NCBI GenBank assembly: GCA_028718635.1
Contig: JAQULK010000001.1
Span: 152,626-216,625 of the forward strand
DNA from: Minisyncoccota bacterium
GTDB taxonomy: Bacteria; Patescibacteriota; Minisyncoccia; Phycocordibacterales; UBA9973
Direction of reading: 5' to 3'
Length of the DNA stretch: 64,000 bases
Shown: in pieces, positions 3,680 through 63,441 of the stretch
How positions within the stretch are numbered: position 1 is the first letter of the stretch
How the letters are laid out: every line of letters begins with the position of its first letter
Translations under genes and position numbers: made by a program
The notes under the pieces: model-generated
Seen by the model: the letters and a program-made list of their open reading frames with translations, nothing else
What the model was told of the DNA's origin: nothing
Database searches by the model: none

Positions 3680-4501
3680 ATGATTGAATTTTACAAATAT
3701 CACGGCGCTGGGAATGATTTTATTATGATAGACAATATCAATAAAAATATTTCTATGCCAAAGGAGCAAATTGCTTTTTTGTGCGATCGGCACATGGGCA
3801 TAGGGGCGGATGGATTAATTTTCCTTGAGCTGTCCCCGAAGGCAGATTGTTTTATGAATTATTACAATGCGGATGGAAGCTTGGCAGAAATGTGCGGTAA
3901 TGGTATCAGGTGTACAGCCAAATTTTTCTTAGAATTAACAAAATCAAAAAAGAAAGAATTATTTATAGACACCAGGGCTGGAATAAAAAAAGTAACATGC
4001 AATAAAGACGGAAGTTTTTCTGTGAATATGGGAATTCCAGTTTTTTCTCATAAGGATTTCCCAAAAGAACCTCTTGTGTTGGAAAACATTAAATTTAATT
4101 TCGTTTCGATGGGTAATCCGCATGCTGTTGGTTTTATAAAAAATATTTCTGAAATTGATATATCTAAAATCGGCCCCAAAATAGAATCGGATTCTAATTT
4201 TCCAAATAAAATAAATGCAGAGTTCGTGGAAAAAGTTAATGATACTTATTTTAAAGTAAGAGTTTGGGAACGCGGATGTGGGGAGACTCTAGCTTGCGGC
4301 ACAGGGGCTTGTGCTGTGTTTGCCTGCGTTAGGCCTTGCCTAACGCAGGCAAAGAGTACAAAAGAAATAACATTAGAATTTCCTGGCGGGAATCTTTTTT
4401 TATCAGAGAATAAAGAAGGAGAAATTATTCTTCGCGGGGAAGCGCAATTTGTTTTTAAGGGAGAAATAAATAATATACAAGGCAAAACTTTGTATATTTA
4501 A
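3680..4501 (+). CDS. dapF: Diaminopimelate epimerase
   Basis: YHGAGNDFIMID N-terminal motif and the two catalytic Cys-containing segments (MCGNGIRC, ACGTGACA). Confidence 0.9.
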   Translation: MIEFYKYHGAGNDFIMIDNINKNISMPKEQIAFLCDRHMGIGADGLIFLELSPKADCFMNYYNADGSLAEMCGNGIRCTAKFFLELTKSKKKELFIDTRAGIKKVTCNKDGSFSVNMGIPVFSHKDFPKEPLVLENIKFNFVSMGNPHAVGFIKNISEIDISKIGPKIESDSNFPNKINAEFVEKVNDTYFKVRVWERGCGETLACGTGACAVFACVRPCLTQAKSTKEITLEFPGGNLFLSENKEGEIILRGEAQFVFKGEINNIQGKTLYI

Positions 4502-6275: not shown

Positions 6276-8789
6276 ATGCTAAAACAGAAAACAGATAATA
6301 GTAAAACATTAGTATTACTAGATGCTCATGCGATAATCCACCGCGCTTATCATGCCTTGCCGGAATTTTTGTCTTCCAAAGGCGAGCCGACGGGGGCGCT
6401 TTATGGGCTTTCCACTATGCTGATGAAAATAATTACTGAGTTAAAGCCGGATTATATTGTGGCCTGTTATGACTTGCCCCAAAAAACTTTTAGGCACGAA
6501 GCGCATGATGGATATAAGGCAGGCCGAGCGAAAACCGAAGATGCCTTGATAATGCAATTAAAAAATTCTCGCCAGATTTTTGACGCTTTTGATATACCTA
6601 TTTATGATGCGCCTGGTTTCGAAGCGGATGATGTTTTGGGGACTATCGTGGAGAAATATAAAAAAGATAAAAATTTGAAAATCATTATTGCATCAGGAGA
6701 TATGGATACTATGCAATTGGTGGATGATAAAAAAGTGCAAGTTTACACTTTGAAAAAAGGCATCAATGATACTATTTTGTACGATGAAGATGCGGTTGTA
6801 AATCGATTTCATTTTAAACCAAAATTCCTTCCTGATTTTAAAGGATTGCGCGGCGACCCTTCAGATAATATCATCGGCATTAAAGGCGTCGGCGAAAAAA
6901 CTGCTGAAATCTTAATCTCAAAATTTGGAACCATTGAAGAAATTTATAAAAAAATTAAACAAGACGAAGAAGTTTTTAAAAAAGCAGGCATCAGTCCTAG
7001 GATGATTGAGTTGCTCAAAAATAACGAGGAAGAGGCTTTATTTTCAAAAATTCTAGCGACGATCAGAACTGACACGCCGATAGATTTTGTTTTGCCTGAA
7101 AAGACTTTTTGGGAAAAGGTGGATTTTAAAAGAATTGAACAAATTTTTTCAACTTTTGAATTTAGAAGCTTAGTAACGCGTTTAAAAAACTTTTTTGAGA
7201 ATAATGGGAATAAGAATAAACAAGAGCCCCCAGAGGATTATGCTCGCCGTCATTCGCACTCCGTCTTGGAAGGGCAAGATCCATCTGGTCGCAGCGAAGA
7301 TTCCTCTGAGCATAATCCTCTGGGGGCTGAACCCATAGATTCGCAAAAACTTCAAGAAGCCAGTATCGCCCTTTGGCTTGTCAATTCTGATATACCGAAT
7401 CCCAGCTTGGAAGATATCTTATTTTTTACCCATACGAACTCTTTTGAAAAAGCTTATGAACATATTTTCAAAAAACTGAAAGAAAATAATTTGGAGAAAG
7501 TGTATGAAGAAATAGAAAAACCCATTATCCCGATAGTGAAAAAAATGGAGGATTATGGGATTTTGATAGATAAAAAATATTTTGAAAAATTGTCTGCTGA
7601 ATACCATAAAGAATTGGATATTTTAACTAAAAAAATATATGCGCAAGCTGGTGTTGAATTTAATATAAATTCACCCAAACAATTGGGAGAAATACTTTTT
7701 GGTAAAATGGGCATAAAATCACCAGGTAAAAATGGAGCAAAAAAAAGTGCAAACGGCGGATTTTCTACTAAGGTTTCAATTTTAGAAGAACTGGAAGAAG
7801 AAAATCCGATTATAAAAGAAATATTATTTTATCGAGAATTGCAGAAATTGCTTTCTACATATATTGATGTCATTCCTAAAATGGTGGATGCTAACGGCCG
7901 TTTACACACAAAGTTTTTGCAAAATGGTACCACGACGGGAAGATTTTCTTCTCAGAATCCTAATTTGCAAAATTTACCTATCAAAACAGAACTTGGTAGA
8001 AGGATCCGAGGCGGTTTTATTGCGCCCAAAGGTTGCAAACTAGTTGCTTTTGACTATAGTCAGATCGAATTACGCATGGCTGCAATGCTTTCTGGAGATG
8101 AAAAAATGACCCAAGTTTTCCGAGATAAAAAAGATATTCATGCGGGAGTTGCTTCTTTTGTTTTTGGTGTGCCAATAGAAAAAGTAGATAGTGAAATGCG
8201 CCGAAAAGCAAAAGTGATAAATTTCGGAATTATTTATGGTATGGGGGTTTCTGCTCTGCGAAAGAATCTCGTCCGACCAAAATCGGACTCCGACACAAGG
8301 TCGGAGGTGGTAACTCGCGAGGAGGCGCAAAGATTTTATGACAATTACTTCAATCAATTTTCTGGCGTGCGGGATTATTTAGAAAAAGTAAAAAAGTTTG
8401 TGCGAGAAAACGCTTATACCGAAACTTTATTCGGCAGACGCAGGAATTTTCCAAACATAAACTCCAGAATTCCATTTTTGAAAAATATGGCGGAGCGTAC
8501 CGCGACCAATGCTCCGCTCCAGGGAACAGCCGCCGATATTATCAAATTAGCCATACGATATGCGGAAGAAGATTTGAAAAAAGCCGGCTTGTCAGAAAGC
8601 ACTCATCTGATACTTCAAATTCATGATGAACTCGTTTACGAAGTGGAAGAAAGTGTACTCTCAAAAGCTGAAAAAATAATAATGGGTGCGATGGAAGGGG
8701 TGCTTCAAAGATCATATATACATTATAAAACGGATATTCCGCTCGAAGCGCACTTTGGTTTTGGGGACAATCTCAGGGAAGTCAAATAG
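6276..8789 (+). CDS. polA: DNA polymerase I (5'-3' exonuclease plus polymerase domains; no recognisable 3'-5' exonuclease domain)
   Basis: N-terminal 5' nuclease domain (LLDAHAIIHRAYHAL..., GIKGVGEKTA), C-terminal family A polymerase motifs (DYSQIELR, KAKVINFGIIYGM, ILQIHDELVYE). Two GC-rich in-frame insertions noted. Confidence 0.9.
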   Translation: MLKQKTDNSKTLVLLDAHAIIHRAYHALPEFLSSKGEPTGALYGLSTMLMKIITELKPDYIVACYDLPQKTFRHEAHDGYKAGRAKTEDALIMQLKNSRQIFDAFDIPIYDAPGFEADDVLGTIVEKYKKDKNLKIIIASGDMDTMQLVDDKKVQVYTLKKGINDTILYDEDAVVNRFHFKPKFLPDFKGLRGDPSDNIIGIKGVGEKTAEILISKFGTIEEIYKKIKQDEEVFKKAGISPRMIELLKNNEEEALFSKILATIRTDTPIDFVLPEKTFWEKVDFKRIEQIFSTFEFRSLVTRLKNFFENNGNKNKQEPPEDYARRHSHSVLEGQDPSGRSEDSSEHNPLGAEPIDSQKLQEASIALWLVNSDIPNPSLEDILFFTHTNSFEKAYEHIFKKLKENNLEKVYEEIEKPIIPIVKKMEDYGILIDKKYFEKLSAEYHKELDILTKKIYAQAGVEFNINSPKQLGEILFGKMGIKSPGKNGAKKSANGGFSTKVSILEELEEENPIIKEILFYRELQKLLSTYIDVIPKMVDANGRLHTKFLQNGTTTGRFSSQNPNLQNLPIKTELGRRIRGGFIAPKGCKLVAFDYSQIELRMAAMLSGDEKMTQVFRDKKDIHAGVASFVFGVPIEKVDSEMRRKAKVINFGIIYGMGVSALRKNLVRPKSDSDTRSEVVTREEAQRFYDNYFNQFSGVRDYLEKVKKFVRENAYTETLFGRRRNFPNINSRIPFLKNMAERTATNAPLQGTAADIIKLAIRYAEEDLKKAGLSESTHLILQIHDELVYEVEESVLSKAEKIIMGAMEGVLQRSYIHYKTDIPLEAHFGFGDNLREVK
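7225..7328 (+). repeat. 104-bp element with perfect 21-bp terminal inverted repeats inserted in-frame in the polA inter-domain linker
   Basis: AGCCCCCAGAGGATTATGCTC (7225..7245) and its exact reverse complement GAGCATAATCCTCTGGGGGCT (7308..7328); GC-rich relative to its surroundings. Confidence 0.75.
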
Positions 8790-10082: not shown

Positions 10083-12329
10083 ATGTTGAAAAATCAACCT
10101 GCCCGCCCTCCTAAGTCAGGAGCAGGCGGGGGAAGTATCTTTAAATTACATAAACCTTTTGAGCCAGCGGGGGATCAGCCAGTGGCTATCAGAGCGCTTG
10201 TGCAAGGTCTGTCTAAGGGAATGAAAAAGCAAACATTACTAGGAGCCACCGGCACAGGCAAGACTTTTACTATGGCAAATGTCATAGCTCAATATAACAA
10301 ACCAACTTTGGTAATAGCTCACAACAAAACCCTTGCCGCCCAGTTGGCCCAAGAATTTCGTGAATTTTTTCCAGATTCCGCAGTGCATTATTTTGTTTCT
10401 TATTATGATTATTATCAACCAGAAGCCTACATGCCTGCATCGGATACTTATATTGAAAAAGATGCCTCTATCAATAAAGAAATAGACATACTTCGCCATG
10501 CTTCCACGCAAGCGCTTTTAACAAGACGAGATGTGATTATAGTTGCCTCGGTTTCTTGTATTTATGGTTTGGGTTCTCCGGAAGAATATGAAAAAGTTAA
10601 TTTAAAACTTGAAATTGGTATGACGATGGACAGATTGACCTTAATGAAGAAATTAATTCAAATTCATTTTGAACGTACCAATGCAGATCTTACTCCTGGA
10701 ACTTTTCGTTCCATCGGTTCGCGGGTGGAATTTATGCCAGTTTCGGAAAGTATAATGTACCAAGTTGAAATGCAGGGCGGGAGAATTTCCAAAATAACAA
10801 AAGTTGATCCAGTTTCTTCTATTATAATTTCTGAAGAAAAGAATATTTTTATTTTCCCAGCAAAACATTTTATTACTGAAGATGCAAAAAAGAAAAAAGC
10901 GCTTATAGAAATTAAAAAAGAGCTAGCACAACAGCTAAAAAAATTTGAAAAAGAAGGGAAACTTTTAGAGGCTGAACGTATAAAAAGAAGAACTAATTAT
11001 GATTTGGCGATGATAAAAGAAGCTGGTTATTGCAACGGCATAGAAAATTATTCTAGGCACTTATCAGGGAAAAAAGAAGGCGAACCGCCAGAAACATTGC
11101 TTTCCTATTTCCCTAAGACTGGTTTTCTTACGATTATTGATGAATCGCATGTCACAATTCCACAACTACAAGGAATGTACGCAGGAGATGCTTCAAGAAA
11201 AAACACTTTAGTAGAATATGGATTTAGACTACCCTCCGCAAAAGATAACAGACCTTTAAAATTCAATGAGTTTGAAAATAGAATATATAATTCTATTTAT
11301 ACTTCCGCTACACCTGCAAAATTTGAGAAATCAGAAAGTAATCAAATAGTGGAACAAATTATTCGTCCGACAGGGCTTGTGGACCCAGAGACAATAGTGC
11401 GACCAGTTTCCGAAGGCGCATTTCCTCCCCTCCTTAACAAGGAGGGGAATGAGGGGAGGTTCTTAATTAATTCACCTCACCCCAACCCTCTCCTTAGTAA
11501 GGAGAGGGGGAATAACTACCCTGGCCAGATTCAAGATTTTATTCAAGAAACAGAAAAAACAATTGCAAAAGGTTTCAGGGTTCTAGCGACGACGTTGACA
11601 AAAAAAATGGCAGAGGATCTTTCTGTTTATTTAAAGGACAAAAAGATCAAAGCAGAATATCTACACAGTGATGTAAAAACGATAGACAGGATAAAAATTT
11701 TAACCCAATTCCGCAAAGGCGAATTTGATGTTTTAGTTGGCGTAAATTTACTTCGTGAAGGGTTGGATTTGCCAGAAGTTGCTCTGATTGGAATTCTAGA
11801 TGCCGACAAGGCAGGTTTTTTACGATCTGAAACATCTTTAATTCAAACGATTGGCCGTGCGGCTCGCAATAGTGAGGGTAAGGTTATTCTTTATGCCGAC
11901 ATTATGACTCCCGCGATGGATTATGCCCTAAAAGAAACTGCTCGTCGCAGAAATATTCAGCTTGCTTACAACAAAAAACATGGCATTACCCCAAAAACAA
12001 TTATGAAAAAGATAAAGGATATCACCGAAGAAATGGAAAGCGAACATGGGAAAGTTGTAAACGCCGAGCTCCAGCTTGATTTGGAAGTTTTTAAGCGCGC
12101 TTATGCGAAAGAATTTAAAAAAGAAAAGAAACAAAATCGGAAAATACCGAACACCAGCTTGGGGCAGTCTTATTTGTCTGATGAAGAGATAGGCAATTTA
12201 ATCTATGAAAAAATAATAAAAATGAAAGAAAAAGAAATGAACAAGGCAGTCAAAGAGTTAGATTTCGAGACTGCGGCGATACTAAGAGACGAGATCGGAG
12301 TTTTGCGAATGCGTACAGAAAAAAAATAG
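10083..12329 (+). CDS. uvrB: Excinuclease ABC subunit B
   Basis: GATGTGKTFTMA Walker A, helicase motifs, beta-hairpin region and a C-terminal UVR domain. Contains an in-frame insertion of about 32 aa between IVRP and GQIQDF. Confidence 0.95.
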   Translation: MLKNQPARPPKSGAGGGSIFKLHKPFEPAGDQPVAIRALVQGLSKGMKKQTLLGATGTGKTFTMANVIAQYNKPTLVIAHNKTLAAQLAQEFREFFPDSAVHYFVSYYDYYQPEAYMPASDTYIEKDASINKEIDILRHASTQALLTRRDVIIVASVSCIYGLGSPEEYEKVNLKLEIGMTMDRLTLMKKLIQIHFERTNADLTPGTFRSIGSRVEFMPVSESIMYQVEMQGGRISKITKVDPVSSIIISEEKNIFIFPAKHFITEDAKKKKALIEIKKELAQQLKKFEKEGKLLEAERIKRRTNYDLAMIKEAGYCNGIENYSRHLSGKKEGEPPETLLSYFPKTGFLTIIDESHVTIPQLQGMYAGDASRKNTLVEYGFRLPSAKDNRPLKFNEFENRIYNSIYTSATPAKFEKSESNQIVEQIIRPTGLVDPETIVRPVSEGAFPPLLNKEGNEGRFLINSPHPNPLLSKERGNNYPGQIQDFIQETEKTIAKGFRVLATTLTKKMAEDLSVYLKDKKIKAEYLHSDVKTIDRIKILTQFRKGEFDVLVGVNLLREGLDLPEVALIGILDADKAGFLRSETSLIQTIGRAARNSEGKVILYADIMTPAMDYALKETARRRNIQLAYNKKHGITPKTIMKKIKDITEEMESEHGKVVNAELQLDLEVFKRAYAKEFKKEKKQNRKIPNTSLGQSYLSDEEIGNLIYEKIIKMKEKEMNKAVKELDFETAAILRDEIGVLRMRTEKK
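11420..11515 (+). repeat. Two tandem GC-rich palindromic mini-elements (CCCCTCCTTAACAAGGAGGGG and CCTCACCCCAACCCTCTCCTTAGTAAGGAGAGGGGG) inserted in-frame in uvrB
   Basis: Perfect hairpin palindromes; they encode VSEGAFPPLLNKEGNEGRFLINSPHPNPLLSKERGNNYP, which is absent from canonical UvrB between RP and GQI. Confidence 0.8.
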
Positions 12330-15226: not shown

Positions 15227-16519
15227 ATGACGAATGAAACTCTAAAAAAATTAAAACTGCCAGATAAGCCCGGTGTATATTTTTTCTTAAAAAATAAGAA
15301 AATTTTATACATCGGAAAAGCGACCTCTCTTCGAGACCGCACCAAAAGCTATTTCAGCAAGGACTTGATAAATACCCGAGGTCCGCTTGTTTTAGATATG
15401 GTTTTTAAATCGGACAATATAAAATGGGAAGCCACCGATTCTGTTTTAGAAGCTCTTATTTTAGAAGCTAATTTAATAAAAAAATATCAGCCTTATTACA
15501 ATACAAGAGAAAAAGATGATAAGAGTTTCAATTATGTCTGCATCACAAGGGAGAAATTGCCAAGAGTATTAGTAGTTAGAGGCCGAGTTTTAAAAAATTA
15601 TAAAGGAAGTATCTTTGGCCCGTATACTAGCGGTACCCAATTGCATGAGGCGTTAAAAATCTTACGCAGAATTTTTCCTTTTATTGATGACAAATCGAGT
15701 AAAAAACAAAACTATGAATTTTATAAACAGCTTGGACTGACTCCAGACGCATCATCTCCGAGTGAAATTTATTTGGATAATATAAAATATTTGAAACTTT
15801 TCTTTAAAGGCAAAAAGAAAGATATCATCCGAGATTTGAAAAAAAAGATGATGCAAAAAGCCAAAGAGGGAGAATTTGAAAAGGCCGGAGAAGTTAAAAG
15901 GCAAATTTTTGCGCTGAAACACATCAATGATATTGCGCTTATAAAAAATAGCTTCGCAGATAATAAAATTTTTGGTCCTGCGCCCTCCTTTGGGCGCATT
16001 TCTGGGAGCAAAGCGGGACCCTCGGACACAAAAATTTTATTATCTGCTTTGCTATTTCGCATTGAGGCTTATGACATAGCGCACATGGGAGGCAAAAATA
16101 TGGTTGGGGTGATGACAGTTTTGGAAAACGACGAAGCAGTAAAGAGTGAGTACAGAAAATTCAAAATTAAGACTCAGAATAATGTAAATGATACCGGCGC
16201 ACTCGCGGAAGTTTTAGAAAGAAGGTTGATGCATAAAGAATGGGCATTTCCAGATTTAATTGTGGTGGATGGCGGTATGGCGCAAATTAATGCCGCCAAA
16301 AGTGTTTTAAAAAAAATGGGTTTAAACATACCCGTAGTTTCTGTTGTTAAAGATGAACACCATAAACCGAAAGCCATAATGGGGGACAATCCACGCCACG
16401 GCAGGGCAAGAGATTTTGGATTAAAATATAAAAGAGAAATTCTACTAGCGAACAGCGAAGCACACCGATTTGCCATCAGTTATCATAAAAATATGAGGAA
16501 TAAGAATTTCTTGATTTAG
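15227..16519 (+). CDS. uvrC: Excinuclease ABC subunit C (short form, about 430 aa, lacking C-terminal HhH region)
   Basis: N-terminal GIY-YIG domain (PGVYFFLKNKKILYIGKATSLRDR) and a C-terminal RNase H-like endonuclease domain (VVDGGMAQINAA...). Confidence 0.85.
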   Translation: MTNETLKKLKLPDKPGVYFFLKNKKILYIGKATSLRDRTKSYFSKDLINTRGPLVLDMVFKSDNIKWEATDSVLEALILEANLIKKYQPYYNTREKDDKSFNYVCITREKLPRVLVVRGRVLKNYKGSIFGPYTSGTQLHEALKILRRIFPFIDDKSSKKQNYEFYKQLGLTPDASSPSEIYLDNIKYLKLFFKGKKKDIIRDLKKKMMQKAKEGEFEKAGEVKRQIFALKHINDIALIKNSFADNKIFGPAPSFGRISGSKAGPSDTKILLSALLFRIEAYDIAHMGGKNMVGVMTVLENDEAVKSEYRKFKIKTQNNVNDTGALAEVLERRLMHKEWAFPDLIVVDGGMAQINAAKSVLKKMGLNIPVVSVVKDEHHKPKAIMGDNPRHGRARDFGLKYKREILLANSEAHRFAISYHKNMRNKNFLI

Positions 16520-16544
16520 CGCGTAAAAAGCATAATATGTAAAT

Positions 16545-18293
16545 ATGAATTCCGAAACGCGGGTCTGCCAAAATTGCAAAAAAGATTTCACGATAGAACC
16601 AGAAGATTTTTCTTTTTATGAGAAACTAAAAGTGCCAGCGCCCACTTGGTGTCCGGACTGCAGATTTGTACGCAAACTCACTTTTATTAATGAACGATCT
16701 TTATATAAAGAAACTTGCGGTAATTGCAAAAAATCAATAATTTCAATGTATAGTCCAGAGAGCGGTATTTCTTCTTGGTGTATCAAATGCCACTTGAGCG
16801 ATGTCTGGGATGCGCGCGATTATGGCAGGGAATATGATTTTTCGAAGACATTTTTTGAGCAGTTTAAAGAATTAAAATACAATATTCCTCACAGAGCGCT
16901 TGATCAAAATGAACGCAACGGAGAAGGCTGTGAATATTCAAATTTATGCTTTGCGAACAAAGATGTCTATTTATCTTTTAATATTGTGGGTTCTGAGCAT
17001 ATAAAATATTCTAATAATGTTTTAAAACGAAATAAAAATTGTTTGGATTCTATGATTATTAAAGCCAACGATAGAGGATACGAGCTGGTACAAGCCAGCA
17101 ACAATTACAACTCGACTTTTTTAATAGAAAGTGATCAGTGTGTGGATTCACATTTCCTTTATGATTGTTCAAATTGCGTAAAATGTTGTTTATCATGTAA
17201 TCTTCGCAATAAAAGTAATGTTTTTAAAAATCAACAATTATCTAAAGAGAAATATGAAGAAGCAGTTACAAATTTGAAATTAGAAACATATTCAGGACAA
17301 ATAAAGGCTAAGGATATTTTTAGGGATTTAGCAAAAAATGCTATTCATAAACATGCGCACATTAAAAATTCAGTAAATGTAGTTGGGGATTTTGTGGAAA
17401 ATTCAAAAAATGTTTATCACTGCTATTGTGTGGCTGATGCGGAAAATGTTAAATATGTTTTTTTTAGTGCCAATGCTATGAAAGATAGCCAAGATGTTGT
17501 GTCATGTGGAAAGATTGAAGAATGTTATGAATTTACTTTAGGAGGAAGAGGTTCCAATCGAGTAGTTTTATGTCTTAGTTGTGGAGGAGGGAATAATAAT
17601 TTGTTTTATTGTGATAATGTTAGAAGTAGTTCTAATTGCTTTGGTTGTGTGAATTTAATTAAGAAACAATATTGTATATTTAATAAGCAATATTCAAAAG
17701 AAGAATATTTCGAATTGTTGTCGAAAATTATGAAACATATGAATGAGATGCCGTATGTGGATGCGCTTGGAAGGGAATATGTTTTTGGTGAATTTTTTCC
17801 TACAGAGATTTCTCCTTTTGCTTATAATGAAACTCGAGCATTTGAAGAATGTCCACTTTCAAAAGAAGAAGTGCTTGCTTTTGGTTATAAATGGAAGGAA
17901 ATAGAAGCCAAAGCCTATGTTCCAACAATAAAAGGAGATGCTATTCCTGATAGCATTAAAGATGTTGAGGATACAATTTGCGACGAAGTTATCGAGTGTC
18001 CCAATAAAGGTAAAGTAGAGACGCGATGCACTTCAGCCTATAAAATATTACCGGATGAGCTTTCTTTTTATCGACAAATGAATCTGCCGATACCTAGATA
18101 TTGTCCGAATTGTAGATACCACCAGCGTTTAGCTTGGAAAAATCCTTTTCATTTTTATAAACGAGAGTGTATGTGTGAATTGCAGAATCATCAACACAAA
18201 GGAAAGTGTCTAAATAAATTTGAAACTATGTATGCTTCTGATCGACCAGAGATAATTTATTGCAAAGAATGTTATCAGGCAGAAATATATTAG
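16545..18293 (+). CDS. Cys-rich protein of unknown function (paralogue 1 of a two-member family in this window)
   Basis: 582 aa. N-terminal CQNCKKDFTIEPEDFSFYEKLKVPAPTWCPDCR and C-terminal MNLPIPRYCPNCR zinc-ribbon-like modules, plus internal C.GC.NL...YCI.NKQYSKEEY repeats. Full-length homology to the ORF at 51882..53585. Confidence 0.7.
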   Translation: MNSETRVCQNCKKDFTIEPEDFSFYEKLKVPAPTWCPDCRFVRKLTFINERSLYKETCGNCKKSIISMYSPESGISSWCIKCHLSDVWDARDYGREYDFSKTFFEQFKELKYNIPHRALDQNERNGEGCEYSNLCFANKDVYLSFNIVGSEHIKYSNNVLKRNKNCLDSMIIKANDRGYELVQASNNYNSTFLIESDQCVDSHFLYDCSNCVKCCLSCNLRNKSNVFKNQQLSKEKYEEAVTNLKLETYSGQIKAKDIFRDLAKNAIHKHAHIKNSVNVVGDFVENSKNVYHCYCVADAENVKYVFFSANAMKDSQDVVSCGKIEECYEFTLGGRGSNRVVLCLSCGGGNNNLFYCDNVRSSSNCFGCVNLIKKQYCIFNKQYSKEEYFELLSKIMKHMNEMPYVDALGREYVFGEFFPTEISPFAYNETRAFEECPLSKEEVLAFGYKWKEIEAKAYVPTIKGDAIPDSIKDVEDTICDEVIECPNKGKVETRCTSAYKILPDELSFYRQMNLPIPRYCPNCRYHQRLAWKNPFHFYKRECMCELQNHQHKGKCLNKFETMYASDRPEIIYCKECYQAEIY

Positions 18294-19037: not shown

Positions 19038-19943
19038 TTATTTCTGATGCACGGAGCAAAAATGCGCGCTGCGGCCGTTTATTATTTTTCTAATTATTGT
19101 GCCTTTACAACCTTTTTTTCTGCATTTTTCTCCTGTGCGTCTATAAGCTTCATGATGCAGTTGGAATTTTCCGGGCAGGCCATAAATATTTTTGTAATCT
19201 GACATTGAGTCTCCGCCGAAATCTATGCCTTTCGCGAGTGTTTCTTTGATGGCTTTGAATATCAATTTAATTTCTGGCTTTTTGAGCGTGGAAACTTTTC
19301 TCTCCGGATGCACTCCGGCGCGCCAAAGTATTTCATCTGAATAAATATTACCAATGCCGGCAATAATTCTTTGATCCATCAAGACTGTCTTAATTTTCCC
19401 ATTTTGTTTTTTAAAAATTTGTAATTCGAAATTCGTAATTGTAAATTGTTTCTCTAACGGTTCCGGTCCGATATTATTCAGATGTTTACTACCTGCCCCG
19501 TAGGAAGTAATCTTTCCTTCGGGGTCGTGGGCAACGTTAGTATCTAATAAAGTAATTTTTCCGAATTTACGCATATCTGAAAAAATTAAATAATGTTTGC
19601 TTGTCCCGCCATGGCGTGGGTTAGATAAAGTGAAAACCACATGCGCAAATTTAATTTTTGGATCTTTGCCGTAAAATAAATAACCGGTCATCTTCATATG
19701 AACCAAGATGGTTTTACCTTCGGACAAGTTTATCAGGATATTTTTTGCACGTCTTTCGGCTGATATAATTTTCTTATTTAAAACTTCCTTTTTAAAATTT
19801 CTGAAAAATTTTGGATTTGCCACGCTGTCTCTTTTGCGCTTGTCTTTCGTCGCCAAATCAGTCCAAACGTCCTTTATTACAAGGCCTAGGACAGTCTTTT
19901 TGAGACCTCTTGTAGTTGTTTCTACTTCTGGTAATTCAGGCAT
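19038..19943 (-). CDS. mutM: Formamidopyrimidine-DNA glycosylase
   Basis: N-terminal MPELPEVE catalytic motif, H2TH region, and a C-terminal CxxC...CxxC zinc finger. Contains a 29-bp GC-rich palindrome in-frame (PEGKITSYGAG). Confidence 0.9.
   Translation of the reverse strand: MPELPEVETTTRGLKKTVLGLVIKDVWTDLATKDKRKRDSVANPKFFRNFKKEVLNKKIISAERRAKNILINLSEGKTILVHMKMTGYLFYGKDPKIKFAHVVFTLSNPRHGGTSKHYLIFSDMRKFGKITLLDTNVAHDPEGKITSYGAGSKHLNNIGPEPLEKQFTITNFELQIFKKQNGKIKTVLMDQRIIAGIGNIYSDEILWRAGVHPERKVSTLKKPEIKLIFKAIKETLAKGIDFGGDSMSDYKNIYGLPGKFQLHHEAYRRTGEKCRKKGCKGTIIRKIINGRSAHFCSVHQK
19496..19524 (+). repeat. 29-bp palindromic element (CCCCGTAGGAAGTAATCTTTCCTTCGGGG) in-frame in mutM; a near-identical inverted copy lies at 12448..12476 just upstream of uvrA
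   Basis: The two copies differ at 2 of 29 positions after reverse-complementing one; each forms an 11-bp stem hairpin. Confidence 0.75.
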
Positions 19944-32716: not shown

Positions 32717-32849
32717 ATAATTTCTTTGGTAGTTTTAGATTAACAGTTTTTTGTTTTAAGGTAAAGATGCAACCCCCTAAATCCCCCTTGTCAGGGGGAC
32801 TATAAGAATTTTCCCTCCTTGATAAGGGAGGGCAGGGAGGGTTGTATTT

Positions 32850-45509: not shown

Positions 45510-45524
45510 GAGAGAGAGAGAGAG
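45510..45524 (+). repeat. (GA)7 dinucleotide microsatellite abutting the GTG start of the beta-helix surface protein gene
   Basis: GAGAGAGAGAGAGAG immediately followed by GTGAATGAC. Confidence 0.8.
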
Positions 45525-48142
45525 TGAATGACGCTCGCCAATTTTGTCATCCTGAACTTGTTTCAGGATCTAATGCGTTTGCCAAAATAATAAAACTTTT
45601 CCGTTTCATTTTTTTCTTCTCGATATTTCTGGGAAGCTTTTTTGTTTTGGCAAACGAAGCAAGCGCGGCGACGTATTATGTGGATGCGACTCTTGGAAAG
45701 GATACATATAATGGTATAACCACAACTATAAATGATGGAGCAAGTGAAGGTCCATGGAAAACACTAACTAAAGTAAATGCCGCGCTGAATGCCGCTTCTA
45801 TTCATGCTGGTGATAGTGTTTTATTTAAAGCAGGGGAGACTTTCTTTGGCTATTTGTATGTTAAGGTAACGGGAACGGTAGGAAATATATTAACATTTGA
45901 TTCCTATGGAAGTGGAAATAAACCTATAATCGACGCTACTGGAAATAATAGCGGTATCGATCTTCGTGGAATAAATTATGTTACGTTTAATAATTTGGAT
46001 GTTAGAAATGCAACATTCCAAGGATACTTTTTTCTCAATGGAAATGACCACATAACAATAAATAATGGAAGTATATCTTCTTCTGCAAAGGCTATCCATC
46101 TCTATAACAATACAATTTCAAATCTAACAATTTCAAATCTAAATGCCAGTAATAATACATATGGTATTTATGGATTTGCCGGGGTTACTGTTAACACATT
46201 GTCCATATCCAATAGCCATTTCGACGACAACACATCAGAAGGTTTTTTCACCGATGGCACTGCGAACGGGAGTAATTTTACGATAACAGATACCACCATG
46301 TCCCGTAATGGGATCGGATCTGATAAAAATGGATTTTTACTACAAGGGACCGGCAGTACAGTTATCCTTACCAGGGTAACATCAGCCAACAACGGAGGGG
46401 ATGGATTTGGTGTCCATAACACTTGGATTGGTGTTATTTTTGATTATTGTACGGCGGATACTAACGGAACAGACGGGATAGGATCAGATGGAGACGGATT
46501 CAGTTTCCATGAGACTTCTTCTGGAATAATCAGGTATTCAATCAGCAAAAATAATTTAAAAACTGCGATTGCTCACGTTAATAGCTCCGCTGTTGAAATG
46601 TATTATGATCTTTTTTATCATGCAACCAATGGCACCTTGCCGCTTGTTTTATTACAAAATACTGGAAATCATAAATTATATAATAATATTATTTACAGTG
46701 GAAGTCAGACTGGTGATGCAGTAAGCGTTGAAGGGACCGTTGATATGCAAAACAATATAATAGATGGTTTCAATCGTGGCCTTATAAAAACTGGAGGAAC
46801 AATATCCAATGACCATGATATTATTTATGGAGTATTAACTTCTAATTATGTTGGTATTTCTGCCGGTGCTTATTCAATTATACAGGATCCAAAATTTTTT
46901 AATTCCAGTATTTATAACTTTTCCCTTCTCCCCACTTCCCCCGCCATCGACTCTGGCACCGATGTCTCATTAACCACCGACTACGCCGGCAATTCCATCT
47001 ACGGTACGCCCGACATCGGCGCTTATGAATACCAGCCGCCATATACCATGGGCACGGATGCAGTAAACACTTCCACCAGTGTCAGAATGTACGGAGACGA
47101 AAAGTTCAGAAACAAAACCGCCACCACCACGGAAACCACGGCTGATCTCTCAATTACCATTCCCGACTCGGATAAAACCAAGTGGCTGGACATAGCAGTT
47201 TCCACCTGGGACAACTCCGGAACTTATCACAAAACCTGGACGGAAAACACTACCAGCACCATTACCAACACCCTCCATACCATCGGAGACCTGGAACCCA
47301 ACAAATACTACAATGTGTCCGTGGATTCCGTTCTGGGAAACAACATTACCGGCGATAACTGTTCAAACGGCCTCTGTCTTTCCAACGCGGAAGGTAAAAT
47401 ATCTTTTACCTATACTGGTTCATATTCCGAACACACCTTTGACGTGGAAGAAGGAGATAATACCGCCCCCATCCGTTCCGCCGGTTTGCCTTCCGGCAGT
47501 CAACCTGCTGGCACAACGCAAGTAACAATGTCTTTGACCACCGACGAAAACGCCACCTGCAAATACTCCACCTCTGCCGACACCGCTTACGCTTCCATGA
47601 CCGATACCTTTACCACAACTGGCACCCAATCCCATTCCACCACCATTTCCGGTCTCTCCAACGGCAATACATACAATTACTATGTCCGCTGCACTGACGG
47701 CTCAAATGCTAACAGCAACGATTACCCTATTTCTTTTTCCATTACTAACCCTACCGCGCATTCTTCAGGCAACAGTGCTCAGAGTCGAATCAACAATCTG
47801 CTCTCCATGGGCAACTACACCCAAGCGCAACAATTGGCTAATCAATACAATATTTCAATTCCAGTAATTACCACCCCGCCTACAGCACCCCTCCTGAATC
47901 AAGGAGGGGAAAGAAGTGTTAATGCTTACAACTTTGGTCTCTCTGTTCTCAAAAAAGGAAGCAAAGGTGAAGCTGTCAAAGAACTCCAGAAGTTCTTAAA
48001 CCAAGATCTGAAACTAAACTTGAAAATAGATGGCATCTTGGGATCAAAAACAACTATGGCTATCAAACAATACCAAAAAGCGCATAATCTAAAAGTGGAT
48101 GGGGTAGTGGGGGAGAAGACGAAGGGGAGGATGGGGGTGTGA
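45524..48142 (+). CDS. Secreted right-handed beta-helix (pectate-lyase-like repeat) protein with C-terminal peptidoglycan-binding domain
   Basis: Hydrophobic signal-like segment then cleavage-like ANEASAA; many N.T.S..N..I/..N repeats typical of parallel beta-helix; C-terminal PG_binding_1-like segment (KGEAVKELQKFLNQ...IDGILGSKTTMAIKQYQ). GTG start preceded by a (GA)7 repeat. Confidence 0.7.
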   Translation: MNDARQFCHPELVSGSNAFAKIIKLFRFIFFFSIFLGSFFVLANEASAATYYVDATLGKDTYNGITTTINDGASEGPWKTLTKVNAALNAASIHAGDSVLFKAGETFFGYLYVKVTGTVGNILTFDSYGSGNKPIIDATGNNSGIDLRGINYVTFNNLDVRNATFQGYFFLNGNDHITINNGSISSSAKAIHLYNNTISNLTISNLNASNNTYGIYGFAGVTVNTLSISNSHFDDNTSEGFFTDGTANGSNFTITDTTMSRNGIGSDKNGFLLQGTGSTVILTRVTSANNGGDGFGVHNTWIGVIFDYCTADTNGTDGIGSDGDGFSFHETSSGIIRYSISKNNLKTAIAHVNSSAVEMYYDLFYHATNGTLPLVLLQNTGNHKLYNNIIYSGSQTGDAVSVEGTVDMQNNIIDGFNRGLIKTGGTISNDHDIIYGVLTSNYVGISAGAYSIIQDPKFFNSSIYNFSLLPTSPAIDSGTDVSLTTDYAGNSIYGTPDIGAYEYQPPYTMGTDAVNTSTSVRMYGDEKFRNKTATTTETTADLSITIPDSDKTKWLDIAVSTWDNSGTYHKTWTENTTSTITNTLHTIGDLEPNKYYNVSVDSVLGNNITGDNCSNGLCLSNAEGKISFTYTGSYSEHTFDVEEGDNTAPIRSAGLPSGSQPAGTTQVTMSLTTDENATCKYSTSADTAYASMTDTFTTTGTQSHSTTISGLSNGNTYNYYVRCTDGSNANSNDYPISFSITNPTAHSSGNSAQSRINNLLSMGNYTQAQQLANQYNISIPVITTPPTAPLLNQGGERSVNAYNFGLSVLKKGSKGEAVKELQKFLNQDLKLNLKIDGILGSKTTMAIKQYQKAHNLKVDGVVGEKTKGRMGV

Positions 48143-50391: not shown

Positions 50392-51033
50392 ATGAAAATC
50401 AGAAAAATAACTCAAATACTCATCGTGGTGTCGGTTATCGCTATTATTTTTATCCTTTTTCGTTTGGATTTGTCGGGAGTAGAAACTCCTGGTTATTTGA
50501 TCTGGAATCTTTTTTTAGCTTGGATACCTTACATAATTTCTTCGTATTTTATTAAAAAGGAAACATCAATAAGTATTTTTATACCATTGTTTATTTTCTG
50601 GCTTTTGTTTTTCCCAAATGCTCCATATTTAGTGACTGATGTTACGCACATAGTCTCGAGTCCTGCGTCCTTCGTGTGGTATGACAGCTTGCTCTTCTTT
50701 TTCTTCGGATGGGTCGGTTTGCTTTTGGGAATGGTTTCTCTTTATCGTATTCATCAATATTTCAAAAATCATTTAAGCAATTTTATTTCTGAACTGATAA
50801 TTTTTGTTATTTGTTTTGTTTCGAGTTTCGGAGTGTATTTGGGAAGATTCGAAAGATGGAATAGCTGGGATCTTTTTTTAAACCCATTTAATTTAATTAA
50901 GCAGTCAGTTAATATTTCAGCTGACCTCATTAATGCAGGCGCCCCATTAATTTTTGTCGGCATATTTACTATATTCATGTACTCAGTTTATAAAACAGTA
51001 TATATTCTGATTGCAGATAACTCTGAATTATAA
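50392..51033 (+). CDS. DUF1361-like integral membrane protein
   Basis: WNLFLAWIPY and FFPNAPYLVTD motifs in a 5-6 TM protein. Confidence 0.5.
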   Translation: MKIRKITQILIVVSVIAIIFILFRLDLSGVETPGYLIWNLFLAWIPYIISSYFIKKETSISIFIPLFIFWLLFFPNAPYLVTDVTHIVSSPASFVWYDSLLFFFFGWVGLLLGMVSLYRIHQYFKNHLSNFISELIIFVICFVSSFGVYLGRFERWNSWDLFLNPFNLIKQSVNISADLINAGAPLIFVGIFTIFMYSVYKTVYILIADNSEL

Positions 51034-51797
51034 TGCCAGCAATAACAAATTCAAAAATAAAAGTTTTATACGAGGATGCAAATATCCTGGCCATAGACAA
51101 ACCGTCTGGAATTTTGGTGCACCCTGACGAAAGAAGTAAAGAGAAAACAATTTTAGATTTATTTATAAAAAAATATCTGAAATTAGAGATAGTGCATAGA
51201 CTTGATAGAGAGACTTCCGGAGTTCTCTTGTTGGCTAAAAATAAAAAAGCTCACGAATTTCTAAAAAAACAATTTCAAAATCGGGAGATAAAAAAAGTTT
51301 ATCATGCTATCGTTTCCGGCAATGTAAAAAATGAGAGGGGGATAATAAATAAGCCAATCGGGCGAAGCCCGAAAGATTTTCGCCGTTATTCGGCTGGCAG
51401 AGGAGCCCGGGGAGAGATGCGAGAAGCGATAACCCAGTATAGGGTTTTGAAACGTTTTGTTGCTAAGGCGAAGCTTCAAGAAATTTTACATCCCCGAGGG
51501 TCCCACTCCGCAGGAGAAGGGCGCAGGGGTGGAAAATTACTTGAAGCGAAGCCACAAAGATTTACCTATCTGGAAATAAGACCAAAAACTGGCCGGACGC
51601 ATCAGATCAGGGTGCATATGAAATATTTGAATCATCCCATTGTGTGCGATTCGCTTTATAATCCTGATAATCCTTGCCCGAAAGGCATTTTTCGAGTGGC
51701 CCTGCATGCCAAATCCATAGAATTTAAGAACTTAAAAGGGGAAACTATAAAAGTGGAATCCGCAATTCCAAAAGAGTTTGAGAAGGTGGTAAAATGA
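51033..51797 (+). CDS. RluA-family pseudouridine synthase
   Basis: HRLDRETSGVLLLAKN catalytic motif and TGRTHQIRVH. Contains a GC-rich, roughly 30-aa in-frame insertion. Confidence 0.85.
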   Translation: MPAITNSKIKVLYEDANILAIDKPSGILVHPDERSKEKTILDLFIKKYLKLEIVHRLDRETSGVLLLAKNKKAHEFLKKQFQNREIKKVYHAIVSGNVKNERGIINKPIGRSPKDFRRYSAGRGARGEMREAITQYRVLKRFVAKAKLQEILHPRGSHSAGEGRRGGKLLEAKPQRFTYLEIRPKTGRTHQIRVHMKYLNHPIVCDSLYNPDNPCPKGIFRVALHAKSIEFKNLKGETIKVESAIPKEFEKVVK

Positions 51798-51881
51798 ATC
51801 TAAGAAATACTTTCTCACCCCAACCCCTCTCCATAAATTGATTTATGGAGAGGGGAAAGCAAGGGGAGAGGTGAATTAATT

Positions 51882-53585
51882 ATGAATCAAGAAACTAAAT
51901 CCTGCCAAAATTGCCAAAAAGATTTCACGATAGAGCCAGAAGATTTTAATTTCTATGGAAAGATAAAAGTTCCATCGCCCTCTTGGTGTCCAGAATGCCG
52001 AATAGTACGTAGATTTGCTATTCACAATACTTGGAGTTTGTTTTGGCGAAATTGTGAAAAGTGTGGGATTAAAACTCTATCAACTTTTGAACCGGAAACA
52101 AAAATCACAACTTACTGCCAACCTTGCTGGTGGGGAGATTCTTGGGATGGCACAGAGTATGCTATGGACTACGATCCATCGCGTCCGTTTTTGGAACAAT
52201 TAAAAGAGTTGAGTAACAAAACGCCGTATGCTGCGCTTGAAACAGCTTATTTAACATTAAAAAATTCTGATTATTCAAATGATATTGCCTGGAGTAAAGA
52301 TTGTTATTTAGTTTTCTGGGCTGATTATTGTGATACAGTTTTTTACTCTTCTTTATTAAATGGTTTGAAATATAGTGCAGATTGTATTAGGGGATATGAA
52401 TCAGAATTATGTTATGAGTCTATAGGTTTTACGAAAAATTATAGAACTTTTTTTTCCGATGAATGTGATACCTGTGTGGATGTATGGTTTTCGCGTAATT
52501 GTTACGGTTGCACCAATTGCATCGGATGTGTGAACCTTCGTGGAGCTTCTAATTATATTTTTAATGTAAAATATTCTAAAGAAGAATATGCGGAAAAATT
52601 AAAAGAACTCAGTCTAGATTCTTGGAGTAAATTACGCGAGCTTGAAAAAAGAGCGCATGAATTTTGGCTGACTTTACCATATAGAGAATATGATGGCCAT
52701 TCTTTAAATTTAAATGTAACAGGAGAACATGTGTATACATCTAAAAATTCTAAAGAGGTATATGTTGTAAATGGTGCAGAAAATTGTAAATGGACTCAGT
52801 TTATAACAGTTCCTACTGCAAAAGATTGCATGGACTACTCTGGCTGGGGTAACAATTCTTCTCTTATTTATGAATCTGCCACTGTAGGAGAGAACGCGAA
52901 TTCAATTTATTTTTGTTATGGCTGTTGGCCGGATTCTCTTAATCTTCAATATTGTTCTTGGAATATATCCGGCAAAAATAATTTTGGCTGTTTTAATCTA
53001 AAGAGAAAGCAATATTGCATCCTAAATAAACAATATTCCAAAGAAGAATACGAGAAACTGAAAAATGAAATTATCGCAGATATGAAAATAAATCCGTATA
53101 TAGATAAACTGGGACGCAAATATTATTATGGAGAATTTTTTCCATCCGAGTTAAGTAAATTTTCTTATAATAAATCAAATGCCATACGTTTTTTCCCAAA
53201 GACAAAAGAGCAAGCGACCCGTGAAGGGTTTAACTGGAGTGATAGAGAAAATATCGTATATAATATTTCTAAACCAGCAAATTCTTTACCGGAAAAAATT
53301 GCGAATACAGGAGAAGATATCTTAAACGAAGTTATTGAATGTGAAAATTGTGGGAATGGATATAGGGTAGTTCAGGGTGAATATGATTTATTGCGTAAAA
53401 TGAATTTACCTATCCCGCATGAATGTCCCAAATGCCGTGAAATTAAACGATTTGCCAGAATGAATAAACCAAAGTTGCATCACCGAAATTGTATGAAATG
53501 CGGTGTAAATATTTATACCCCTTATTCTCCCGAAAGTCCTAATATTGTGTATTGCGTGAAGTGTTATCAGCAAGAATTTGCTTAA
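51882..53585 (+). CDS. Cys-rich protein of unknown function (paralogue 2)
   Basis: 567 aa. N-terminus CQNCQKDFTIEPEDFNFYGKIKVPSPSWCPECR, C-terminus MNLPIPHECPKCR, internal C.GC.NL...YCILNKQYSKEEYEKL repeats. Collinear homology to 16545..18293. Confidence 0.7.
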   Translation: MNQETKSCQNCQKDFTIEPEDFNFYGKIKVPSPSWCPECRIVRRFAIHNTWSLFWRNCEKCGIKTLSTFEPETKITTYCQPCWWGDSWDGTEYAMDYDPSRPFLEQLKELSNKTPYAALETAYLTLKNSDYSNDIAWSKDCYLVFWADYCDTVFYSSLLNGLKYSADCIRGYESELCYESIGFTKNYRTFFSDECDTCVDVWFSRNCYGCTNCIGCVNLRGASNYIFNVKYSKEEYAEKLKELSLDSWSKLRELEKRAHEFWLTLPYREYDGHSLNLNVTGEHVYTSKNSKEVYVVNGAENCKWTQFITVPTAKDCMDYSGWGNNSSLIYESATVGENANSIYFCYGCWPDSLNLQYCSWNISGKNNFGCFNLKRKQYCILNKQYSKEEYEKLKNEIIADMKINPYIDKLGRKYYYGEFFPSELSKFSYNKSNAIRFFPKTKEQATREGFNWSDRENIVYNISKPANSLPEKIANTGEDILNEVIECENCGNGYRVVQGEYDLLRKMNLPIPHECPKCREIKRFARMNKPKLHHRNCMKCGVNIYTPYSPESPNIVYCVKCYQQEFA

Positions 53586-62538: not shown

Positions 62539-63372
62539 ATGGAAATATCGCCAGAACAAAAAGTAAAATTATATAACGGATTAAAGATCGCGCTTATTGT
62601 TTTCTTGGCTGTTGTGGTCGCAAATGCTTTGTTTGATTGTAGAGGCGATAGAGACGAAGATAAAACACCTAACACTATATCTTTTTCTGGGCACGGGGAA
62701 GTCACAGCGGTGCCTGATATAGCGAATATTTATTTTACGATTAGCCAAGATGCAAAAACAGTGAAAGATGCTCAAACGGCAGTGGCAACCATAGAGAAAA
62801 AAGCCTTAGATTTATTGAAAGCAAAAGGGGTGGCAGACAAAGATATTCAGACCGCGAATGCATCCTTTAATCCTAAGTATCAATATCAAAATGCTGTTTG
62901 CCCTCCTGTTCCTGTGGGTGCCGGCACAGCCGGGATTGCAGTTGGCTCAACTTCTCCTTCTTATTGTCCTCCTGGCAGGCAAGTGCTTGTCGGCTATACA
63001 GCAAACGAAAGTATTACGGTAAAAATTAGAAATATCGATTCTGTCGGTGATATTATGCAAGGACTAGGGACAACAGGCGTTTCTGATTTGAACGGCCCTA
63101 ATTTCGCAATTGATAAAGAAGATTCTTTAAAAGCAGAAGCAAGGAAAAAAGCTATTGATGACGCCAAAGCAAAAGCAAAAGTGTTGGCAAAAGATTTAGG
63201 AGTACGTTTGGGAAAAATTACTTCTTTCAGTGAAAATGGAAATACTCCGATTATGTATACCGCGAGCGCTATGATGAAAGATAGTGCGGGGGCAGCTCCG
63301 GCACCGGCAGTGATTCCAAAAGGGGAGAACACCATCAGCTCGGATGTGACTATAACTTACGAAATAAGGTAG
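62539..63372 (+). CDS. SIMPL domain (DUF541, YggE-like) periplasmic protein
   Basis: ISFSGHGEVTAVPDIANIYF...ITVKIRNIDSVGDIM pattern of the SIMPL family. Confidence 0.7.
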   Translation: MEISPEQKVKLYNGLKIALIVFLAVVVANALFDCRGDRDEDKTPNTISFSGHGEVTAVPDIANIYFTISQDAKTVKDAQTAVATIEKKALDLLKAKGVADKDIQTANASFNPKYQYQNAVCPPVPVGAGTAGIAVGSTSPSYCPPGRQVLVGYTANESITVKIRNIDSVGDIMQGLGTTGVSDLNGPNFAIDKEDSLKAEARKKAIDDAKAKAKVLAKDLGVRLGKITSFSENGNTPIMYTASAMMKDSAGAAPAPAVIPKGENTISSDVTITYEIR

Positions 63373-63441
63373 AAAGACCTCACCCCAGCCCTCTCCTTGT
63401 TAAGGAGAGGGGGGTTCATTTGACTATTTGAGCAAAAAGAG

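Follow-up and report, generated by a model that had tools for sequence, protein, structure and literature searches.

In a window of 64,000 nucleotides from the genome of a Minisyncoccota bacterium (contig JAQULK010000001.1 of assembly GCA_028718635.1; positions below are those of this 64-kb window), the DNA repair gene uvrB carries a GC-rich palindromic segment inserted in-frame at 11415-11516. This segment is an insertion and not a conserved part of the gene, and the element that makes it up is a dispersed repeat. We propose, with a probability of about 0.8, that it is a copy of a dispersed, non-autonomous hairpin repeat of the BoxC/TM (triplex motif) family, tolerated and translated in a permissive loop of UvrB. 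The phenomenon is far wider than a single family or a single gene, as palindromes of several families have been gained, exchanged and degraded at the same places of core proteins in related genomes of the Candidate Phyla Radiation (CPR).

An in-frame insertion in a complete UvrB

The protein encoded by the host gene is 100% identical to one named excinuclease ABC subunit UvrB by NCBI, from a metagenome-assembled genome (MAG) of Candidatus Pacebacteria. It matches solved UvrB with an E value of 1e-227 and has, with the insert in place, the full set of UvrB Pfam domains, while the columns that are conserved in the alignment with its relatives are kept. The solved chains (9gy7_E, 2fdc_A and others) cover residues 20-442 of the query and then 480-650. 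Since chain residues 427 and 428 are adjacent in the solved protein, the query has 37 extra residues at this point. The net gain is 31 codons (93 nt) when counted against the closest CPR relatives and against the syntenic locus L083, where the DNA at the insert site is empty. Of the 120 UvrB relatives that are closest (75-86% identity, all of them Paceibacteria-like), 67 have no insert and read ..RPVSEKxxYKGQIQDF.. at this position, and the insert's own sequence family was found in only about 8 of the 120, in some of them partially. The alignment of orthologues thus revealed no conserved segment of equal length, and the extra in-frame segment that an earlier note on this DNA had described, from the letters alone, is there as claimed.

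The composition of the insert also sets it apart. Its GC content is ~0.49-0.52, against 0.38 in uvrB, a contrast already pointed out in the earlier note, and the window has 35-40% GC nearly everywhere. The host frame, in which the region encodes the peptide FLINSPHPNPLLSK, is the only one of the six frames that is free of stops, the other five having 1-6 stops each. In the alignment with solved UvrB the insertion falls between residues 427 and 428, which we take to be the junction of the two RecA-like helicase domains. An AlphaFold2 model, made from a shallow alignment of 40 sequences, has a mean predicted local distance difference test (pLDDT) score of 52. The source is a MAG, and one may ask whether the segment is an artefact of assembly or binning. 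We regard this as extremely improbable: the insert was found in independent assemblies from different samples and archives, where the locus L081 (ENA) is identical to L082 (JGI) and the insert is also carried by L206 and L207, and it keeps the reading frame.

Two inverted units form a single composite palindrome

The earlier note had read the segment as two tandem palindromic elements. The two hairpins, H1 and H2 (Table 1), are indeed perfect, with stems of 10 bp, and they are the inverted halves of one composite palindrome, not direct tandem copies. The extent given for the second palindrome must also be corrected: the stem of H2 is real, but CCTCACCCCAA lies outside of it and forms a separate C-rich block. 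Each half has the architecture of a triplex motif, which is defined by a pyrimidine block, a complementary purine block and a G-rich third block that mirrors the latter, with loops of 1-6 nt. In unit 1, the GGAGGGG arm is followed by GGGGAGG. Unit 2, when read as its reverse complement, is CCCTCTCCTT-ACT-AAGGAGAGGG-TT-GGGGTGAGG.

The third block follows its own arm when the sequence changes. In the orthologous copy of L081 the arms are TCTCCCCC and GGGGGAGA and the third block is AGAGGGGG, so that arms and block have changed together, and the blocks have also changed together in the variant of L208 (CCACCCCCTCC, CCTCCCCCT and AGGGGGAGG). Across 17 units from five loci, the similarity of the third block to the mirror of its own arm was 0.826, against 0.739 +/- 0.023 when the blocks were permuted, and none of 500 permutations reached the observed value; the margin is modest because all the blocks are G-rich. 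H2 is nearly identical in 5 genomes at the uvrB site, as well as in uvrC of L084 and in intergenic copies.

These structures are far from what is expected by chance. The core pattern has 6 matches in the window where shuffled sequences give 0.01. There are 18 GC-rich perfect hairpins, against 3.1 +/- 1.3 in block-wise dinucleotide shuffles, and 6 of those in the window have a polypyrimidine arm, against 0 in the shuffles. Folded as DNA, the segment of 101 nt reaches -26.9 kcal/mol (z = -5.8), with three hairpins inside an outer stem, while as RNA it forms a single long hairpin of -49.7 kcal/mol (z = -4.4). A search against Rfam returned six tRNAs and no match at the elements.

Copies in other genes, in spacers and in unrelated proteins

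The window has 9 units of the TM type in 64 kb, where none is expected, and 5 of them are in-frame inside genes. Since coding DNA makes up 92% of the window, the units are still about eight-fold enriched per base in intergenic DNA. The copies listed in the earlier note were all recovered. The intergenic one at 63377-63413 is 92% identical over 37 nt, another is at 51810-51876, and the one at 32770-32845 holds two units, of which that at 32813-32832 is imperfect. The coding copy (47888-47909) is in-frame in the open reading frame (ORF) 45524..48142, where it is part of the linker that precedes the PG_binding_1 domain. The G-rich third block GGGGAGAGGTG of the second of these copies (within 51862-51881) is 8 nt upstream of the ATG at 51882 and could act as a Shine-Dalgarno sequence; more generally, the arms CCTCCTT and AAGGAGG of this family resemble anti-Shine-Dalgarno and Shine-Dalgarno sequences.

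Two coding elements of the window were not in the earlier note. One is an inverted pair in uvrA (12932-13031), which accounts for 39 extra residues relative to solved UvrA and is absent from L084 and L085. The other is a second hairpin insert in uvrB itself, at the N terminus (10098-10133), which encodes ..PARPPKSGAGGG.. where most relatives have MxKNQGNIFKL. Its "PARP..GAGGG" peptide occurs also at the N terminus of the protein P0025 and at the site of the main insert (site 447) in P0034. The spacer of the uvrA pair, AATTCCAAGAAA, is similar to the NSKK codons in the L084 allele, which is nearly empty, and this similarity hints at two independent insertions of single units on either side of host codons. 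We rejected this scenario for uvrB, where the composite recurs whole in unrelated proteins.

These proteins are P0121 (240 residues, 97% identical), P0123 (292 residues, with a further insert nested inside the element) and P0124 (122 residues). An exhaustive phmmer search with the insert peptide of 34 residues gave 6 hits in total; it also returned two ORFs of 36 residues, which may be mis-called copies outside genes. At the DNA level, the unit of ~40 nt (SPHPNPLLIKERGN) was found in uvrC of L084 and in the spacer between ruvC and ruvB of L083. The element is not unique, and it is a dispersed repeat.

Assignment to the BoxC/PIT/TM family

The earlier note compared the element with the Rickettsia palindromic elements and took it for a different sequence family. 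This family is not a new one: it is the pan-bacterial BoxC/PIT/TM triplex motif (Hoyne & Maher 2000; Holder et al. 2015, Nucleic Acids Res 43:10126, PMC4666352), to which the element is assigned on sequence grounds. The uvrB insert is colinear with the BoxC pair between hrpB and mrcB of Escherichia coli K-12 (NC_000913, 164539-164639), and the right halves of the two are nearly identical (TTCACCCTCACCCTAACCCTCTCCC..GGGAGAGGGGA in uvrB, TTCACCTCACCCCAACCCTCTCCTT..AAGGAGAGGGGGA in K-12). The spacer of the E. coli pair, 16 nt long, is in the same position as the AT-rich spacer of the insert. The insert also matches the published TM_ECO sequences (Table 1 of PMC4666352). The block CCTCACCCC belongs to an 18-mer, CTCACCCCARCCCTCTCC, that is present across many phyla. 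A scan with this 18-mer, using one genome per species, found at least 120 stretches, and among the matches listed the hosts include Alpha-, Beta- and Gammaproteobacteria, Cyanobacteria, Bacteroidota, Chloroflexota, Planctomycetota, Nitrospirota, Omnitrophota and others. The common form in the 130 matches that were read is CCCTCACCCCA(A/G)CCCTCTCC(C)-loop-(G)GGAGAGGG, with imperfect purine arms in some of them.

TM_ECO has 23 copies in E. coli K-12, with five inverted pairs, and TM motifs occur in over 260 genomes (Holder et al. 2015, PMC4666352). The same study reports that the triplex forms in vitro but was not detected in vivo in E. coli, that TM/PIT motifs have no promoter or terminator activity and no link to transposons, that they are associated with local genomic instability, and that their location in E. 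coli is "always intergenic." The elements described here share with BoxC/TM the three-block unit (CCCTCTCC(C), loop, (G)GGAGAGGG, 2-3 nt, GGGGTGAGG), the inverted pairs with a spacer of ~15 nt (in uvrB, in uvrA and at 32770-32845) and the many dispersed copies without an associated transposon. They differ in having arms with a TT/AA extension (CCTT..AAGG), in having several arm variants (CCCCTCC, TCCCCC), each with a matching third block, and in their host, a CPR genome of ~0.67 Mb with 37% GC. A further difference is that the five coding units of the window lie in-frame inside uvrA, uvrB and ORF 45524, whereas those of E. coli are reported as intergenic. The latter is a property reported in one species and not part of the structural definition of BoxC/TM.

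Several palindrome families succeed each other in the same loops

Inserts at the same UvrB loop are found in 53 of the 120 relatives, where they make at least 8 unrelated peptide families. Three long inserts at this loop, when read as DNA, proved to be palindromes of ~93-102 nt: family A, which is the TM type, and, in L084 and L085 respectively, families B and C. In other genomes the same families are found in another loop of UvrB, which follows residue 347 and immediately precedes helicase motif II, and they recur in polA, uvrA and uvrC. On a neighbor-joining tree, the state of loop 447 requires at least 32 changes between presence and absence and 45 changes of family. We also found copies in decay: 30 nt of unit 1 are missing from L207, a single unit remains in P0062 and P0044, and P0097 retains the right end of family B. 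When the window was compared with four syntenic relatives, polA, uvrA, uvrB, uvrC and fpg showed clean hairpin inserts, 21-102 nt long, that are GC-rich and specific to a lineage (Table 1). In uvrC, for example, the site of the 93-nt palindrome is taken in L084 by a single TM unit.

The family-B cores of 66-68 nt are identical or nearly so in L084 (11022-11089 and 11412-11479), L210 (11040-11107 and 11463-11530) and the window (7243-7310). The two copies within one gene of L084 have cores that are 100% identical and outer inverted repeats that differ and are fully compensated, while the outer stem in L210 and L209 runs into conserved host codons (CCC GAC TTC). A small hairpin of the form CTCCGAC-loop-GTCGGAG, found in the polA insert of the window (8288-8306), is nested in the second unit of the uvrA element of L081 (~6990-7010), which shows that nested insertion occurs. 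A split polA in L209 (3560-3700) was considered as a case of a frame-breaking insertion and rejected, since the frame changes beside a run of A, without a palindrome; the probable cause is an error of assembly or a frameshift of recent origin.

Could the segment instead be an old, fast-evolving linker of UvrB, specific to this lineage, whose symmetry is kept by copying from arm to arm (quasipalindrome correction or template switching) and whose families are diverged states of one sequence? This would account for the right junction, where all filled alleles have ..TAC CCY GGN and most empty ones TAC AAA GGN, with a similar pattern at site 347, for insert lengths that are alike across families (~93-102 nt) and for the compensated arm changes between orthologous copies. 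It would not explain why near-identical units occur at positions that are not homologous (uvrC in L084, intergenic DNA both in the window and in L083, P0121 and P0124), why the same families are found at two UvrB loops and in polA, why one of them is common to the BoxC of E. coli and many phyla, or why two copies in one L084 gene have identical cores. We therefore hold the linker explanation to be quite unlikely.

The conservation of structure raises another question: are the hairpins kept for a function of their own? They might serve as signals for mRNA pausing, processing or stability, or as DNA structures that promote recombination and variation, with the peptide being incidental. Between the window and L081 it is the structure that is kept and not the peptide (PPLLNKEGNEGR became PLPLNKGEIERG), with arms and third block changing in concert, and this explanation would also agree with the strong folding, with the position of inserts at domain junctions in UvrB, polA and ORF 45524, and with the genomic instability linked to TM motifs (PMC4666352). 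Yet 67 of the 120 close relatives do without the insert and others have unrelated sequences or decayed remnants in its place, the motifs have neither promoter nor terminator activity and form no detectable triplex in vivo in E. coli (PMC4666352), and a location at junctions is equally expected under tolerance alone. A function of the structure itself is, in our opinion, unlikely.

All 22 inserts that we examined have a length that is a multiple of three and are free of stops in the host frame, and about 70% of the residues they encode are G, S, P, L, E, R and K, a composition that fits a flexible loop. The length and the lack of stops are as expected under selection on a translated sequence, and would be unneeded if the inserts were spliced or bypassed. 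GC-rich hairpin elements are bypassed in the mitochondria of yeast, and the stable hairpin in a coding region invites the thought that the insert is absent from the mature protein, through ribosomal bypassing (as in gene 60 of T4 or the mitochondrial "byp" elements) or removal from the mRNA. In the face of inserts that are all in-frame and open, where the other frames often have stops, and of a region that matches no Rfam family, this is very unlikely. The inserts are also far too short to be inteins.

Table 1. Features of the insert in uvrB and of the other palindromic elements in the window
Feature	Position	Strand	Evidence or remark
uvrB coding sequence, 748 residues, host of the insert	10083..12329	+	ORF list, NCBI protein identity, Pfam, match to solved UvrB
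In-frame insert, 34 codons, peptide GAFPPLLNKEGNEGRFLINSPHPNPLLSKERGNN	11415..11516	+	Empty site in relatives, gap in solved UvrB, fold z score, open frame
Hairpin H1, TCCCCTCCTT / AAC / AAGGAGGGGA (pyrimidine arm, loop, purine arm)	11426..11448	+	Perfect 10-bp stem
Third block of unit 1, GAGGGGAGG, mirror repeat of the purine arm of H1	11451..11459	+	Mirror score 1.00
AT-rich spacer of 15 nt between the inverted units, TTCTTAATTAATTCA	11460..11474	+	Position as in the E. coli pair
Third block of unit 2, on the complementary strand, CCTCACCCC (reverse complement GGGGTGAGG)	11475..11483	+	Mirror score 0.90
Hairpin H2, CCCTCTCCTT / AGT / AAGGAGAGGG	11486..11508	+	Perfect 10-bp stem
Second in-frame hairpin insert of uvrB, N terminus (..QPARPPKSGAGGG..), DNA CCTGCCCGCCCTCCTAAGTCAGGAGCAGGCGGGGGA	10098..10133	+	N termini of relatives
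In-frame pair in uvrA, same architecture; hairpins 12935-12960 and 13005-13025, G- and C-rich blocks around spacer AATTCCAAGAAA	12932..13031	+	
Single TM-type unit, in-frame in ORF 45524..48142 (..PPTAPLLNQGGE..), linker before PG_binding_1	47870..47912	+	
Intergenic TM-type pair, ACCCCCT-AAA-TCCCCCT..AGGGGGA and CCCTCCTT..AAGGGAGGG-CA-GGGAGGG	32770..32845	.	
Intergenic TM-type unit, 12-bp stem, flanks CTCACCCCAA and GGGGAGAGGTG	51810..51876	.	Just upstream of ATG at 51882
Intergenic copy of the H2 unit, 5 nt past the stop codon of ORF 62539..63372	63377..63413	.	37 nt with 92% identity to 11474-11510
Family-B palindrome, in-frame in the interdomain linker of polA (..YARRHSHSVLEGQDPSGRSEDSSEHNPLG..)	7225..7328	+	Family B also at UvrB 347 and 447 elsewhere
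Hairpin insert of 36 nt in polA (PKSDSDTRSEVV), stem CTCCGAC/GTCGGAG at 8288-8306	8277..8312	+	Absent from four syntenic relatives
In-frame palindrome of 93 nt in uvrC (CAGATAATAAAATTTTTGG...CAAAAATTTTATTATCTG)	15956..16048	+	Other elements at the site in relatives
Insert of 21 nt in uvrC (NPRHGRA), shares CCACGCCAYGGC with an fpg insert	16388..16408	+	Absent from four relatives
Insert of 21 nt in fpg (PRHGGTS), same small family as the 21-nt uvrC insert	19599..19619	-	
Hairpin insert of 33 nt in fpg (PEGKITSYGAG)	19491..19523	-	Absent from four relatives

How the repeats may spread and persist

In the scenario that we favor for the uvrB insert, that of a tolerated and translated BoxC/TM repeat, a non-autonomous hairpin repeat would be copied around the genome, in a spread that is presumably selfish, i.e., non-adaptive. 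The copy in uvrB would be transcribed and translated as a loop of 34 residues, with a high share of Pro, Gly, Ser, Lys and Glu, and UvrB would remain functional with it. Copies that are out of frame, or at a position that does not tolerate them, would be lost by selection, which is why the survivors would cluster in few loops and linkers. Hairpin families would thereby repeatedly occupy, replace each other and decay in the same permissive loops of the products of polA, uvrA, uvrB, uvrC and fpg.

Several observations weigh against this scenario. We found no transposase, RAYT, Y1_Tnp or integrase by Pfam among ~40 ORFs scanned in the 64-kb window, out of a contig of 672 kb, nor a target-site duplication at any of the clean pairs of filled and empty sites. 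The flanks do not fit a simple insertion either. At site 447 the filled alleles have ..YPGQ and most empty ones ..YKGQ, with a few empty ones having ..YPGQ, and at site 347 the filled alleles have H..PD where most empty ones have KTG. These differences are common to the filled alleles of every family, which is unexpected if the insertions were independent events in identical empty sites, and there may have been one ancestral filled allele whose interior has since been turned over. Finally, the translation of the insert and the activity of UvrB are deduced from sequence.

What process could produce such alleles? The outer stems that differ around identical cores point, weakly, to copying through a single strand or a hairpin over a cut-and-paste mechanism. 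Nesting into older hairpins, fold-back copying of the flanks, or conversion from arm to arm could each explain both the compensated outer stems and the shared flanks. A bolder proposal, which is tentative and which we think rather less likely to be right than wrong, is that BoxC/TM is actively copied and that, with at least 8 other hairpin families, it colonizes and remodels the surface loops of core proteins in CPR, by a mechanism that targets hairpins and leaves no target-site duplication. Such a mechanism could consist of nesting into existing palindromes or of fold-back copying of the flank. The site-specific and compensated outer stems, the nesting in uvrA of L081 and in P0123, and the shared changes in the flanks are hints in this direction.

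Comparison with other palindromic elements

The parallel with the Rickettsia palindromic elements (RPE; Ogata et al. 2000, Science 290:347; Ogata et al. 2002, Genome Res 12:808; summarized in PMC10969869) that the earlier note drew is well founded as far as behavior goes, the elements being palindromic, dispersed, in-frame and free of stops. Like RPE, they are dispersed palindromic repeats of ~100 nt, they are found in-frame in unrelated housekeeping genes, to which they add a peptide segment, and several families occur together in a reduced genome, with no mobilizing mechanism known. The likeness is one of behavior, and by sequence we file the uvrB element as BoxC/TM-like and not as RPE. The sequence families and the phylum are different, and the sizes here range from 21 to ~102 nt. 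Unlike in RPE, one and the same loop of orthologous genes is used by several unrelated families, which turn over and decay there, and one of the families also occurs in free-living bacteria, for which it was described as intergenic (E. coli).

Other short elements offer partial parallels. Repetitive extragenic palindromes (REP), with their mosaic arrays (BIME) and associated transposases (RAYT), and miniature inverted-repeat transposable elements (MITE) are also short, multi-copy and able to form hairpins, and their orthologous sites are also differently occupied in related genomes. REP are extragenic by definition, and no RAYT or insertion sequence gene was seen here in the 64-kb window. The elements have the inverted repeats of a MITE but no target-site duplication, and no transposase was seen among the ~40 ORFs scanned in that window. 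Fungal mitochondria, whose compact genomes are AT-rich, harbor GC-rich mobile hairpins, also within coding regions: the GC clusters, the double-hairpin elements and the "byp" elements. The latter break the reading frame and the ribosome bypasses them, whereas the inserts here keep the frame. We found no description of coding palindromes in the literature on CPR/Patescibacteria, which is weak evidence given the incomplete coverage of our search, and we know of no mechanism for the spread of the BoxC/TM motif across bacterial phyla.

Further repeats in the window

The window contains other repeats and palindromes. A strongly folding palindrome at 51470-51552 lies inside the gene of a pseudouridine synthase (ORF 51033..51797, RluA-like), whose Pfam match spans 181 residues for a profile of 152 positions, consistent with a candidate insert of ~30 residues. 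In dapF (diaminopimelate epimerase, ORF 3680..4501) there is a perfect GC-rich hairpin with a stem of 16 bp, TTTGCCTGCGTTAGGC-CTT-GCCTAACGCAGGCAAA, at 4319-4353. Two palindromes, at 40633-40707 and 59052-59101, share CCCC(C/G)ACACTTAT..ATAAGTGTGGGGG; the first is upstream of a RuvX domain, probably before the true start codon, and the second is at the 5' end of an Nramp gene on the minus strand.

There are also direct repeats. One of 87 nt, 76% identical and with a hairpin of its own, is found after spoU (18823-18909) and after ruvX (41178-41264), and its CTCGCCGTCGCTCGCC stretch resembles the start of the family-B core. A stretch of 37 nt, GGATGGGGTAGTGGGGGAGAAGACGAAGGGGAGGATG, is 100% identical at 48097-48133, where it encodes the C-terminal end of PG_binding_1 in ORF 45524..48142, and at 61904-61940, in the spacer before an FKBP gene. 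The 5' ends of two ORFs (16540-16685 and 51877-52022) are paralogous, with 77% identity over 146 nt. Both ORFs (16545..18293 and 51882..53585) are large and have no or weak Pfam matches.

Implications for reduced genomes and for the BoxC/TM family

Protein-coding palindromes have been presented as a peculiarity of Rickettsia, and the Paceibacteria (CPR) are a second, unrelated lineage with reduced genomes in which they occur, at high density in genes of DNA repair and replication. The use of BoxC/TM, described as intergenic in E. coli, as coding sequence is a new setting for this family. The inserts lengthen and diversify the proteins of CPR and can cause errors in alignments, in domain boundaries and in the calling of genes. 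In addition, they provide a natural map of where a loop can accommodate 10-35 additional residues in UvrA, UvrB, UvrC, PolA and Fpg. The many clean filled, empty and decayed alleles available per site are material for working out the mechanism of insertion and loss. If BoxC/TM is indeed actively copied, the pairs of filled and empty sites would be the first direct handle on its movement.

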